A stretch of DNA of 57,171 nucleotides from an uncultured Clostridia bacterium (GCA_947643225.1 CANRVH010000004.1:1-57171), one strand, 5' to 3'. Counted from the stretch's first letter, positions 16,512-24,976 are shown. Numbers and translations are program-made. Notes: generated from the sequence alone by a model not told the origin.

Positions 16512-17684
16512 ATGACCAATAAAGATATGCGAATAAATCTATTTGTAATTGTACCATTACTATTAACAGTTATTTTAATTGGAGGAGGGATAACTTATGC
16601 CCTTTTTACTAAAACGGTTAATACTGATAAAGAGATTATAGTCGGTACAGGAACAAAGTATATTGGAATATATGGGGAGGGAAAGAATGATATCCAACTT
16701 GGAAAAAGGTATACTTTTACTGTTGAAAACAGGGGAGTTGTTAGTTCAGGGTATGAACTTTATTTGGAGCATGATGGTAGTAATACAATTTCTCCAGTAG
16801 ATATTATCTGTAATATAACTTCTACTTCTTCATCTATTGCATCTCCAAATATTCAAGTAACAGCAGATAAAACAACTTTAGTAGTAGGAGATTTGGTAGC
16901 AGGAGAAAAGGATACGATTACAATAGAACTTACAGGAGATACTAGTTTAATTTATAGGGGAAAAATAAAACTTAGATATGTAGATTATCGTACTCCGGAT
17001 TCACCTAAAAATAGAAATATAGTAGCAATATATACTTATAATGATGTGGAAGGATCAGATAATTATTGTGTATCAGGTGATGAGGCTACATGCCAATATT
17101 CAAAGTGTTATAAAGAAGAGTCTGAGGGTAGTTGCCCTGCTGGAACAATTGTAAAATATAAAGTAAATAGTACCACAACTAAAGATTTTCATGTATTATT
17201 TGATCGAGGAAATGTGTTGGTTATGCAGACTCGAACAGCAGTTTTAAATATGATAAAATGGAATGAGAATAATGTTAATAGTGAAGGACCTATAACCATT
17301 TTGGCTGCTTTAGAAAATGCAACTGAAAATTGGAATAATGTACATGATCTTACTTATACATTAGGTGGTGCTTCATTAACAGGGGATACGATGTATACAG
17401 GGTGTAATAATAATTTAAAGTGTGAAACAAATACTTATACTCTTTCAGAAAGAACAGCAAAGGCGAGATTACTTACATTACAAGAAGCAACTAGTTTTGG
17501 ATGTGGATGGAGTAATAATTCTTGTCCAAAATACTTAACACCAGCAAGTGGATCTTATTGGACCTCTTCTAGTTACTCATCGAATGAAAAGGATGCTTTT
17601 TTGGTTTATAGTTCAGGGTTTGTTAGTCGTATTGGTTCTGCTCAACAAAGTGGTACTTTTGCAGTAGTAGAAATTTCAAAATAA
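16512..17684 (+). CDS. Secreted/anchored two-module protein: TasA/camelysin-like N-domain plus Cys-rich lectin-like (DUF1566/Lcl-C-like) C-domain
   Basis: GAGAGG SD. The signal/anchor ends in GGGITYALFTKT, close to the Bacillus TasA/CalY pattern GGGT(W/F)A.F.D. Strand motifs YTFTVENRG and YELYLEHDG are shared with the ORFs at 19034, 19638 and 24365. The C-terminal 225 aa are paralogous to 32064-32738 and end in ARLLTLQEA...YWTSS...A(F)...(x)..VV, like DUF1566. Confidence 0.55.
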   Translation: MTNKDMRINLFVIVPLLLTVILIGGGITYALFTKTVNTDKEIIVGTGTKYIGIYGEGKNDIQLGKRYTFTVENRGVVSSGYELYLEHDGSNTISPVDIICNITSTSSSIASPNIQVTADKTTLVVGDLVAGEKDTITIELTGDTSLIYRGKIKLRYVDYRTPDSPKNRNIVAIYTYNDVEGSDNYCVSGDEATCQYSKCYKEESEGSCPAGTIVKYKVNSTTTKDFHVLFDRGNVLVMQTRTAVLNMIKWNENNVNSEGPITILAALENATENWNNVHDLTYTLGGASLTGDTMYTGCNNNLKCETNTYTLSERTAKARLLTLQEATSFGCGWSNNSCPKYLTPASGSYWTSSSYSSNEKDAFLVYSSGFVSRIGSAQQSGTFAVVEISK

Positions 17685-17699
17685 TAATTTTAAATTAAA

Positions 17700-17738
17700 A
17701 GAGTTATGACTGTATTATATGTCATAGCTCTTTTTTTG
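17700..17738. terminator. Bidirectional terminator between convergent genes
   Basis: AGAGTTATGAC (17700-17710) pairs with GTCATAGCTCT (17721-17731) with one G-U, followed by T7. The stop codon of the minus-strand gene (17715-17717) sits in the loop. Confidence 0.7.
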
Positions 17739-22959: not shown

Positions 22960-24297
22960 ATGAAAAGAATTTTAAAAAAAGAAAACATGAAGTATATCTT
23001 GTTGTTTTTCCTCTTTTTGGGATGGCAACTATTTTATAATAATTTATTTTGTGATTATTTATGGAGTTATGGATTTAGTTATAATATTATTACAGGATTA
23101 GATCCTTATCAAGATTTTAATATGGTGGTTCCTCCATTAACCTCTATTCTTTTTTCTATTCCTCTAATTTTTTCAAAGGGAATTCATATTTTTGCTATTA
23201 GTTATTCTATATTGTTAACGATTATTTGCTATTTTATGTTTCGATTATTTGGAAAAAAAACTTACTTATTTTTACTTTTTTTCTTTATTCCATCACCACT
23301 TTTTATTTTTTTATGTAATTATAATTTACTATTGTATTTGTTTTTTTTACTTTTAATCTATTTAGAGAAAGAAGAACACTTTGATTATACAGTGGGAATA
23401 ATTGCTTCTTTATCTTTTTTTACAAAGCAGTCTATAGGATTCCTTTTTATTCTTGCTTCATTATATTTAGCGAAGGATAAAACTTGTATTAAGAAAAGAT
23501 TAATTGGTGTAGTTAGTATTTTTGTTTTATTCTTTTTTTATTTTCTTATGAATCATAATCTTTATTCTTTTATTGATCAATGTTTTTTAGGGATGTTTAA
23601 TTTTTATGAAAAAAATAGAAATTTTAATTTGGTTTTTTTTCTATTTTTGGGTATGATTATTTATACATTAAATAGGATTATTCAAAATCGTGAAGAAAAG
23701 AGTTACTATTATGTATTATGCTTTCTTTTCTTTAATTATCCGACATTTGATTCTGCTCACTTTGTTTTAAGTTTAGTTGTTTTTCTTTCTCTTTTTGTAG
23801 AAAGGATTAAGGAAAGTGGATTCTATTTTTATATTTTTGTTTTGCCTATTTTCTTTATTAGTTTTAATCTGCTTGTATCAGATTTTAAAGGTCATTTTAT
23901 TTATCCTAATCAAGTTTCTAATTTTGAATATTATTATTTACCTGATTATGTTGTAGAAAATATTAAACAGGTTAATCAATTTGTTGAGAAAAATCGGAAT
24001 AAAAGGATTGTCTTTATTACTTCTACTTCTTATGTTTATAAGATTTCTAATCATTTAAGAGTTGAGAGGTATTTGGATTTATTAAATTATGGAAATATGG
24101 GTTTTGAGGGTAGTAATAATGCAATTCGAGAAATAAAAAATTATTCTAATGATACTATTTTTTTAGTTGATGATTTATTATTAAAACAGAATATAAAGAG
24201 AAAAACTCAACTTGATCAGAAGGTACTGGAATATTTTTATCAGAACACTAAGGTAGTTGGGGTAATAGAAAATTTTACTATTTATCAAAAAAAATGA
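22960..24297 (+). CDS. GT-C-like polytopic membrane protein (putative lipid-linked-sugar glycosyltransferase)
   Basis: 445 aa with about 11 TM helices plus a C-terminal soluble domain of about 130 aa. The first-loop string CDYLWSYGFSYNIITGLDPYQDF resembles the D..Y....G..PY loop-1 motif of DUF2029/GT87- and PMT/ArnT-type GT-C enzymes. This is from memory and was not searched. Confidence 0.45.
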   Translation: MKRILKKENMKYILLFFLFLGWQLFYNNLFCDYLWSYGFSYNIITGLDPYQDFNMVVPPLTSILFSIPLIFSKGIHIFAISYSILLTIICYFMFRLFGKKTYLFLLFFFIPSPLFIFLCNYNLLLYLFFLLLIYLEKEEHFDYTVGIIASLSFFTKQSIGFLFILASLYLAKDKTCIKKRLIGVVSIFVLFFFYFLMNHNLYSFIDQCFLGMFNFYEKNRNFNLVFFLFLGMIIYTLNRIIQNREEKSYYYVLCFLFFNYPTFDSAHFVLSLVVFLSLFVERIKESGFYFYIFVLPIFFISFNLLVSDFKGHFIYPNQVSNFEYYYLPDYVVENIKQVNQFVEKNRNKRIVFITSTSYVYKISNHLRVERYLDLLNYGNMGFEGSNNAIREIKNYSNDTIFLVDDLLLKQNIKRKTQLDQKVLEYFYQNTKVVGVIENFTIYQKK

Positions 24298-24364
24298 TGG
24301 AATCTTTATTGAATTAAAAAATAATTAGTGATAGTATTGTATTAGAAAATAAAGAGGTATAAAT

Positions 24365-24976
24365 ATGAAAAATGAATTGTATGAGAAGAAAAGGAAAGTA
24401 TATTTTAAATTTTTGTTATTTGTTTTAGTACTTTTTTTAGTGGTTGGTATTAGTTATGCAACGATTTCTTTTATTGGTATGGGGAATAAAGTAAATAGTG
24501 TAACAACAGGGGCTATTACGATGATTTATACAGAAGGTACTAATCGTGTTAGAATGGAAAATGCTTTGCCTATTAGTGATGAAGAGGGTAGATTTTTAAT
24601 GGATGAAGGCCAAGTTTTTGATTTTAATGTTAGTATTAATGTAACAGGAAATTTTTCTATTGCTTATGAGGTGGTAGCAGAAAAACAAAAACAATCAACG
24701 TTAGGAAATCAAGAAGTAAAAATATATTTAGAAAGAAGTAGTGATGCTAATTATTACTCTTCTGTATTGGAACCAACGCATTATATACCATTAGAAAAAA
24801 GGACTACTTTTGGTTCTCCAGAGGGGAGTATGGTTATGGATACGGGAGTTGTGAATTCTTCTGTCGTTTACTATTATAGACTTAGAATGTGGATTGATGA
24901 AAATTACCAAGATGCTAGAAATTCAAAGGATTTTACTGTTAAGGTGAATGTATATGGAACAACAGAAAAAAATTAG
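24365..24976 (+). CDS. TasA/camelysin-like paralog 3
   Basis: AGAGG SD. The anchor ends in GISYATISFI. Family strands follow: TTGAITMIY, LPISDEEG, FDFNVSINVTGNFSIAY and YRLRMWIDENY. Confidence 0.5.
   Translation: MKNELYEKKRKVYFKFLLFVLVLFLVVGISYATISFIGMGNKVNSVTTGAITMIYTEGTNRVRMENALPISDEEGRFLMDEGQVFDFNVSINVTGNFSIAYEVVAEKQKQSTLGNQEVKIYLERSSDANYYSSVLEPTHYIPLEKRTTFGSPEGSMVMDTGVVNSSVVYYYRLRMWIDENYQDARNSKDFTVKVNVYGTTEKN

Follow-up and report, generated by a model that had tools for sequence, protein, structure and literature searches.

The stretch of DNA analysed here (the window), 57,171 nucleotides from an uncultured Clostridia bacterium (GCA_947643225.1, CANRVH010000004.1:1-57171) with a G+C content of about 27%, contains a division and cell-wall (dcw) block that carries four paralogous genes, termed A, B, C and D. 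Paralog A (16512-17684; 390 amino acids, aa), paralog B (19034-19591; 185 aa from its ATG) and paralog C (19638-20219; 193 aa) lie upstream of murG, murB and divIB (20281-22957), and paralog D (24365-24976; 203 aa) follows further downstream; all four are on the plus strand. A, B and D were assigned by profile comparison with hhalign, A and C by AlphaFold2 (AF2) models, and C also through its homologues. We consider it reasonably probable, at roughly 60%, that these genes are satellite paralogs of a SipW-dependent surface-fibre system of the TasA superfamily which is typical of uncultured gut Bacilli ('Tenericutes'-like metagenome-assembled genomes, MAGs).

That the four open reading frames (ORFs; A with its N-terminal half) exist and are homologous had been proposed in a first-pass annotation of the window and is borne out by profile comparison. 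Pairwise BLASTP is clear only for B and C (E 9e-13) and marginal for A and C (1e-3) and for C and D (4e-4). A profile built from 11 unannotated database homologues of C, which contains none of A, B and D, aligns with B at 99.0% probability in hhalign (E 4e-18, 162 columns), with D at 97.9% (E 6e-13, 168 columns) and with residues 6-92 of A at 95.2% (E 3e-8). When all 186 stop-to-stop ORFs of the window were searched with the family hidden Markov model (HMM), A, B, C and D were matched and no other ORF did so at E<=10. Since the profile of C relatives finds B, D and A and the HMM finds exactly these four, the set of four paralogs is real. Translation of B most likely begins at the ATG at 19034, as originally annotated, and not at the TTG at 19019 of the ORF listing, judging from its orthologs, which begin MNYAYYKK. 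The architecture that had been claimed for all four does not extend fully to A: according to the alignment and the AF2 model, the P-x-S-D loop and the conserved Trp are absent, and the segment YRGKIKLRYVDY, formerly read as A's Y-x-L-R-L-W-I-D strand, aligns instead with the last strand. The counterpart of that strand in A is DTITIELTGD at residues 133-143.

Paralogs A, C and D each begin with a signal peptide that ends in a small-aromatic-Ala motif (a slash marks the predicted cut). In A the site reads ITYA/LF, with predicted cleavage after A30 (nt 16601), followed by a trimmed TasA-like beta-sandwich module up to about residue 157 and a passenger domain at about 166-390; the AF2 model (pLDDT 83.7) places strands at 42-157 and then a second domain. 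In C (ASYA/LF, predicted cleavage after A30, nt 19727) a conserved post-cleavage segment, residues 31-50, leads into a beta-sandwich at 51-183, and the AF2 model (pLDDT 89.5) comprises a helix at 6-36, a low-confidence stretch at 37-50 and eight strands at 51-183. The protein ends in a conserved tail, EDKTDFDTGA (residues 184-193; nt 20187-20216), which in the C subfamily reads E-[GD]-x-T-[ND]-Y-[DE]-T-G-[AE] and forms the extreme C-terminus. Because no hydrophobic segment follows it, the tail is not a sortase signal. The C-terminal residues of TasA form a second inter-subunit interface in the fibre (PMC9674648). In D (GISYA/TI, predicted cleavage after A32, nt 24460) the site is followed by an N-x-V-T-T-G-A-I-T-M strand and then the beta-sandwich.

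Paralog B departs from this pattern. Its N-terminal transmembrane helix (SIYYIYDRF) has Tyr at -1 and no S-Y-A cleavage motif, and S-E-S-L-E-V replaces T-G-T-L-x-L with loss of the Gly (SSESLEV); these deviations are common to the B orthologs in two related genomes (L001 and L004). The missing A-x-F motif had led to the suggestion that B might be a retained membrane anchor. This fits the data, as the deviation is kept in the orthologs and is typical of a whole subclass described below, and to judge from its sequence B is probably an uncleaved, membrane-anchored subunit. None of the four proteins carries the LPXTG-type sorting signal of sortase-assembled pilins, since they end right behind the last strand. 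Likewise, the class III signal of type IV pilins and pseudopilins is absent from A to D, where the conserved site lies after the helix and not before it, and matches to Pilin_N and TrbC were at chance level only.

Relation to TasA and extent of the family

Our searches agree with the earlier proposal that the four proteins are diverged relatives of TasA and camelysin. Among family members, the Peptidase_M73, SipW-cognate-signal and TasA models were the sole recurrent weak matches. By far the commonest was Peptidase_M73 (PF12389), found in 20 of 90 members with a best E of 3.5e-6; a single long member passed the cutoff of 22.5 bits, with 23.0 bits confined to its N-terminal ~60 residues. The SipW-cognate-signal model TIGR04088 matched 5 of the 90 members and none of A to D, and the TasA model matched 5 of the 90 likewise. 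Aligned with B. subtilis TasA alone (residues 28-261 of the query sequence were checked to be identical to PDB 8AUR chain A), the family profile of 90 sequences reached 69% probability (hhalign E 4.4e-5) over the signal peptide and first strands. With a profile of five sequences, namely B. subtilis TasA and the products of four plasmid genes of the B. cereus group annotated as 'TasA family protein', the probability rose to 94.7% (E 5.6e-8; the TasA profile is shallow, Neff ~2), and the 169 aligned columns cover the whole domain up to the last strand, where family F-x-G-K-I-x-V-x-A-x-Q is paired with TasA ...FSFEATQ. Moreover, when 774 ORFs were searched with the family HMM, the four plasmid TasA proteins were the only matches outside the family (E 3e-7 to 3e-6).

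The cleavage sites are closely similar as well: the family consensus [ST]-[YF]-A compares with TWA/AF in TasA and TYA/YF in TasA of the B. cereus group, and around its site TasA reads G-G-G-T-W-A/A-F...F-A-S-G-T-L-D-L. With TasA and CalY of the Bacillus tapA-sipW-tasA type the family shares G-x-[ST]-aromatic-A followed by x-F, a post-cleavage segment that runs into a G-T-L-x-L strand, N-x-x-P-x-D and F-x-F-x-N-x-G strands, a final strand ending A-x-Q, profile homology over the whole domain and a core operon with a SipW-type peptidase. In the TasA fibre the donor strand comprises residues 28-38, directly behind the SipW site, with key contacts at F29, I32 and F39 (PMC9674648). Our hhalign alignment places the aromatic residue at +2 of the family on F29, and the hydrophobic residue three positions before the conserved Gly on F39.

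It has to be considered whether this likeness is convergence from a shared signal-peptide type, in which case the proteins would be an unrelated Ig-like beta-sandwich and a new fold family that uses SipW. Most curated-model matches indeed span only the first ~60 residues, the hhalign probability falls to just 61% (E 8e-5) when the signal peptides are cut from both sides, and Foldseek E-values are no better than 1.9e-3. We nevertheless regard convergence as very improbable. The full-length alignment extends to the last strand; the mature-only score of 34.2 is twice the best of 21 controls (20 column-shuffled and one reversed profile, all <=15.8); and AbpA or AbpX came out on top in three independent searches of >170,000 PDB sequences or 350,000 chains. 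In Foldseek against the PDB, AbpA (7ueg_A) ranked first for the C model (E 1.9e-3) and fifth for the A model (E 6.2e-3), with TM-scores of 0.31-0.39, and AbpX gave the best PDB sequence matches of the family profile (E 0.05-0.07). Overall, the sequence comparisons provide good, not overwhelming, support for the family as a remote but genuine member of the TasA superfamily in the sense of PMC9245690 and bioRxiv 10.64898/2026.01.04.697558; we count TasA, BsaA, AbpA, AbpX, CanA, threads and Tafi to this superfamily. The family lies outside the curated TasA/camelysin family.

The four plasmid TasA genes encode proteins of 197-199 aa and stand alone on their B. cereus-group plasmids (L012-L015); in the three records that are annotated, no sipW gene is marked within 3 kb. 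The canonical family, too, thus has satellite TasA genes that stand by themselves.

An exhaustive HMM search with the C-family profile, counted in cluster representatives at 50% identity, showed the family to be large: at least 6,334 representatives reach E<=1e-3, and 3,561 reach E<=1e-10. Its members are found mainly in uncultured gut Bacilli and 'Tenericutes'-like MAGs. The family is captured by no Pfam or NCBIfam model, our literature search found no description of this clade, and no source names any of its members, the sole name on record being 'hypothetical protein' for one 81-aa fragment. The nearest records to the window's NrdD likewise come from uncultured 'Tenericutes' or 'Bacilli' gut MAGs; as a taxonomic marker NrdD was uninformative, being 76-88% identical across many orders.

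In 161 sequences the module is always N-terminal, and protein length ranges from ~175 to 2,133 aa (86 proteins of <=260 aa, 39 of 261-500 aa and 36 longer). In the long members the module is followed by adhesin-type domains, including DUF285, BspA-type LRR_5, Flg_new, Big_2, Bact_surface_Ig-like and Laminin_G_3. A further, internal copy of the module is present in two proteins (P0021 and P0017). It starts at HMM positions 40-42 (about +8 to +10), hence without a signal peptide and without the first 7-9 residues behind the cleavage site. The N-terminal logo of 90 members shows G at -5, S or T at -3 (88/90), Y or F at -2 (81/90) and A at -1 (84/90), followed by a hydrophobic residue at +1, F, W or L at +2, N at +12, [ILV] at +14 and G at +17 (86/90), which leads into T-L-x-L-x-L-[DE][ED]. 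A, C and D fit this logo, and B (IYY/IY) does not.

The passenger domain of A recurs in 13 of the 161 family proteins. The A ortholog of one related genome (L004) has retained the N-terminal module and carries a different C-terminal domain. The same domain is found a second time in the window, in ORF E (31821-32738, plus strand; 305 aa), which was recognised by BLASTP to A and carries it at 49% identity (E 1e-63) behind a different N-terminus. This shared domain (17007-17684 in A) is a Cys-containing unit of ~225 aa which occurs twice in the family protein P0143; it has no Pfam or NCBIfam match and no confident fold match in the PDB, and a tentative assignment as a DUF1566 or C-type-lectin-like domain was unsupported by Pfam or Foldseek. 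ORF E itself matches neither the family HMM nor any Pfam or NCBIfam model. Its N-terminus consists of a hydrophobic helix that ends in a TasA-like small-aromatic-Ala site (GGVYA/AT), followed by ...VQGAIDELY, but is not a family module.

Core operons with a SipW-type peptidase

The window encodes no signal peptidase, as judged by a relaxed motif and an HMM from 15 peptidases; these were used because the motif [SGT]G[SD]SM.P is too strict, the true enzymes reading S-P-S-M-V-P. The statement in the first-pass annotation that the genes have no sipW neighbour thus holds within the window, but not its extension to a sipW-less organisation, as relatives hold a core operon with a SipW-type peptidase. 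Around a D-like family representative (P0170, contig L102), three tandem paralogs are followed by a 252-aa protein (6458-7216) that scores 105.8 bits on TIGR02228, the model for archaeal/endoplasmic reticulum (ER)-type signal peptidase I (cutoff 51.85), and 101 bits on the Bacillus SipW model, and that contains the boxes S-M-x-P, T-H-R and T-K-G-D-N. We searched species-representative genomes for such loci. Of the 19 closest loci found with this enzyme as query, 18 had family members next to the peptidase gene on the same strand. An alignment of 15 peptidases as query gave 78 further loci, 76 of them with one to eight adjoining same-strand members; the control, 326 kb of NrdD loci, gave none. 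That the family is a SipW-linked clade of the TasA superfamily is in our view highly probable.

Two of the genomes with such a locus are relatives of the window. In one MAG, a contig (L004) shows the window layout (response regulator, ORF F, A, ligase, B, C and murG), and another contig (L217) carries, in this order, tatD, a D-like gene (208 aa), a SipW-like gene (277 aa), a B-like gene (163 aa) whose product has no S-Y-A motif, two genes for proteins of 230 and 178 aa, and ksgA. In the same MAG, an ortholog of D lies behind divIB (64% identity over the 45 residues available at the contig end) besides the D-like paralog in its core operon (39%); the genes of the window are therefore satellite copies and not a relocated core. 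In a second MAG, whose NrdD on contig L022 is the closest to that of the window (88% identity), another contig (L213) holds two paralogs and the peptidase. The core operon ends in two conserved small membrane proteins of 230 and 163-178 aa (7234-8419 in L102; 9204-10432 in L217), which could be assembly or anchoring factors; the L102 pair has no NCBIfam match, and neither protein has a homologue in the window.

The members around sipW fall into distinct subclasses. The member whose gene abuts or overlaps the 3' end of sipW belongs to a class of its own, of ~170-183 aa, in which 40 of 52 proteins lack the canonical site and typically read T-S-I-L-W-Y-R-F-F-Y. Ten of the 15 best matches of B fall into this immediate-downstream class, though it accounts for only 52 of 325 members. 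The best matches of C in sipW loci are the two downstream classes. D, as far as its sequence tells, represents the type that precedes sipW in core operons: all of its best 15 matches lie upstream of sipW, with up to 43% identity and E-values down to ~3e-51. The window holds four satellites of two subclasses, one of them, A, part of a fusion protein.

This organisation resembles known TasA-type systems to varying degrees. The mature domain of the family (~150-165 aa) is smaller than mature TasA (234 aa), and the family differs from TasA in having one to eight paralogs per operon plus satellites, large C-terminal passengers and one subclass without a cleavage site. No TapA homologue was recognised, although no search aimed at TapA sequence similarity was made. 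BsaA and BsaB, encoded by the C. perfringens sipW-bsaA-bsaB-bsaC operon, are likewise remote TasA homologues with several paralogs in a sipW operon, and form surface-attached oligomers built by donor-strand exchange (PMC11580942). BsaA locks its subunits by an N-E-K isopeptide triad, whereas the family is without an apparent triad: N at +12 is common and no invariant Lys appears in the conservation data, which were not examined in depth on this point. Unlike the BsaA/BsaB system, no VWA-domain partner was seen.

The archaeal filaments of the superfamily comprise AbpA (7UEG), AbpX (9SJ2/9RHP) and Tafi, with subunits of similar size (~160-180 aa). AbpA is the best structural match of the family and AbpX the best PDB sequence match, although these matches are non-significant alone (Foldseek E 2e-3 to 6e-3; hmmsearch E ~0.05). 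In the archaeal loci a major subunit is encoded together with a tip adhesin, a membrane anchor, a regulator and, in many cases, a dedicated signal peptidase I (bioRxiv 10.64898/2026.01.04.697558), and these components find parallels here in C and D (major subunit), A (tip adhesin), B (anchor), a histidine kinase and response regulator pair (regulator) and SipW. However, the AbpX-associated peptidase is described as having ten transmembrane helices (same preprint), compared with the SipW-like enzymes of 220-280 aa found here, and the hosts here are bacterial gut commensals. TapA (PMC9674648) and AbpB (PMC9245690) are accessory subunits proposed as first-strand donors and fibre anchors; like them, B and the immediate-downstream members are minor, divergent subunits beside the peptidase and plausible anchors or nucleators. 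TapA, a SipW substrate whose central domain is unrelated, differs in this from B, which has a beta-sandwich of its own, belongs fully to the family and apparently keeps its helix uncleaved.

Conservation within the division cluster

Upstream of the paralogs, an AMP-binding enzyme gene (11073-13100) is followed on the plus strand by a hybrid histidine kinase (HK; 13333-15204) and a response regulator (RR; 15201-15953), both assigned through tblastn synteny and the Pfam annotation of the syntenic genes in three relatives (L001, L016 and L103). ORF F (15969-16403, plus strand; 144 aa), with a transmembrane helix and a small beta-rich domain, has no family HMM match. Between A and B, on the minus strand, lies an O-antigen-ligase-like membrane protein (17715-18896), for which the earlier Wzy_C-like label agrees with a match to PF13425 (O-antigen_lig, E 7e-26). 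Enzymes of the Wzy_C type include pilin O-glycosyltransferases, and by analogy A could be a glycosylation substrate of this neighbour. The multi-pass membrane protein of 445 aa between divIB and D (22960-24297, plus strand) had been described as a GT-C-like membrane enzyme; it is a membrane protein, but the GT-C label is unproven, its sole basis being PMT_2 at E 0.056.

The order HK, RR, B, C, murG, murB, divIB is kept in four relatives (L103, L004, L001 and L016). Identity of the syntenic proteins is 76-91% in L103, and the order persists in L001 and L016, where C is only 40-44% identical. HK and RR lie directly upstream of the B-C pair in all relatives examined except where a block of F, A and the ligase intervenes; this block occurs in L103 and L004 as in the window, and neither L001 nor L016 has it. 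A gene of ~445 aa comes right after divIB in L001, L016 and L103 (34-76% identity) and is missing from L004, and D orthologs follow either divIB or this gene in L103 and L004, as D does in the window. From synteny, it is possible that HK and RR regulate B and C. Downstream of D, the genes for Tex, a Crp-like regulator, NrdD, NrdG, dUTPase and ORF E precede ftsA (32931-34166) and ftsZ (34144-35316). The division cluster is thereby split, with an inserted block of ~8.6 kb (24298-32930) between the 445-aa membrane gene and ftsA-ftsZ that has D at one edge and E at the other; in L001 and L016, ftsA-ftsZ come directly, or one gene, after the corresponding gene of ~441-443 aa.

Such stable gene order raises the possibility that B, C and perhaps D are extracytoplasmic accessory proteins of the division and wall-growth machinery encoded by murG, murB, divIB, ftsA and ftsZ. 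Besides the persistence of the HK-RR-B-C-murG-murB-divIB order and the position of D, the lack of any terminator-like site between C and murG could be cited in favour of this; however, our scan found terminators nowhere in the region and promoter counts at background level, and is uninformative in such AT-rich DNA. Outside this lineage, family members occur singly among unrelated housekeeping genes, the conserved partner of the family is SipW and not the dcw genes, and B, C and D have no similarity to known divisome proteins. A role in division is for these reasons improbable. The scattering of the paralogs through the division cluster, which the first-pass annotation had pointed out, stands as conserved synteny, but in one lineage only; it is a stable, lineage-specific insertion and not a property of the family, and may reflect co-regulation.

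Beyond ftsZ, an unannotated ORF of 542 aa (35407-37035) is followed on the plus strand by an ORF of 1,204 aa (37053-40667) with the prepilin-type motif MKKLNDRAFTMIELIAAITIMALLMLIIIPNIF, a class III cleavage/methylation motif on a protein of ~1,160 aa that has no Pfam match at 1e-5. The product is a type IV pilin-like protein of very large size. Secretion of the TasA-like Bsa proteins requires type IV pilus components in C. perfringens (PMC11580942).

A surface-fibre model and its alternatives

In the model that we favour, each paralog would be exported by Sec, and A, C and D would be cut after [ST]-[YF]-A by an archaeal/ER-type signal peptidase from a core operon elsewhere in the genome. As in the relatives, this operon would lie between tatD and ksgA and comprise D-type paralogs, sipW, a B/C-type paralog and the two small membrane proteins. 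The freed N-terminal segment may then serve as a donor strand that slots into the sandwich of the adjoining subunit, in the manner of TasA, BsaA, AbpA and AbpX, giving rise to a fibre. B, with Tyr for Ala at -1, would retain its helix and tether or nucleate the fibre at the membrane. Binding domains would be presented on the fibre by A and by the many longer members whose C-terminal domains are of the LRR, DUF285, Ig-like or lectin type. The basis for strand donation is indirect, namely the conservation of the post-cleavage segment and its alignment with TasA residues 28-47, and we rate the fibre mechanism, with its presumed steps of cleavage, polymerisation, anchoring and adhesion, as somewhat better than an even chance.

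The main rival is that the module combines a SipW-type leader with a TasA-derived beta-sandwich stalk for monomeric surface proteins, so that no fibre is formed and adhesins, or small coat proteins such as B, C and D, are held by an uncleaved helix or by wall binding. The position of the module in front of adhesin domains (LRR_5, DUF285, Flg_new, Big_2 and Laminin_G_3) in proteins of up to 2,133 aa would suit such a stalk, as would the tandem modules inside single chains, the AF2 models of C and A, in which one long confident helix runs through the putative cleavage site, and the fact that the structural matches are generic beta-sandwiches. Yet small residues at -3 and -1 and a near-obligate dedicated peptidase next door favour cleavage, and the conservation of the 25 residues after the site, including N(+12) and G(+17), would be unexpected for an anchor linker. 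The internal module copies are without exactly the signal peptide and the first 7-9 residues behind it, and every structurally characterised member of the TasA superfamily polymerises by strand donation. We therefore consider a non-polymerising stalk unlikely, while it has more in its favour than either convergence or a role in division.

Several observations nevertheless weigh against a SipW-dependent fibre system as the source of A to D. None of the four proteins matches PF12389 or NF046066 at E<=1, and all remain below every curated threshold for TasA, camelysin or the SipW signal. Foldseek returned nothing at E<=1e-3, with TM-scores of 0.3-0.4 and no TasA chain in the top 50. A lack of the cleavage site is not exclusive to the class downstream of sipW, as 85 of 260 upstream members also fail our crude cleavage pattern, and the internal modules of P0021 and P0017 together with the large passengers fit a stalk equally well. 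Furthermore, A to D are read here as satellites of a core sipW operon and not as a sipW-less system, and for the window's own genome this sipW is inferred from the relatives.

More tentatively, the TasA-like module might be a universal N-terminal 'plug' of uncultured gut Bacilli, whereby a single SipW-dependent donor-strand system would build fibres from D-type major subunits on an uncleaved B-type anchor and equip them with dozens of grafted, rapidly evolving passengers (LRR, DUF285, Ig-like and the A/E domain), and the satellites in the division cluster would couple display to envelope growth under the control of a phosphorelay. We regard this extension as possible, yet still rather unlikely; if true, it would give Gram-positive bacteria an equivalent of chaperone-usher tip-adhesin pili with the TasA fold as its building block.

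The wide distribution of TasA-like proteins is known already (PMC9245690), with 2,172 BsaA/TasA relatives reported (PMC11580942), and the fibre system proposed here is therefore not a new kind of system. What is new are the size of the clade and its invisibility, a sipW operon with a mostly uncleavable downstream class, the routine fusion to adhesin domains and the satellites fixed in the dcw cluster. Bacillus, Clostridium and some archaea are known to use TasA-type fibres as scaffolds of their biofilms. The branch described here is much larger and uncaptured by curated models, and thousands of 'hypothetical proteins' would gain an annotation from an HMM of the family. Should the fibre model hold, there would be testable targets in the SipW site, the donor segment and the anchor subunit, and the system would probably be a main surface-adhesion apparatus of a poorly understood part of the gut microbiota.

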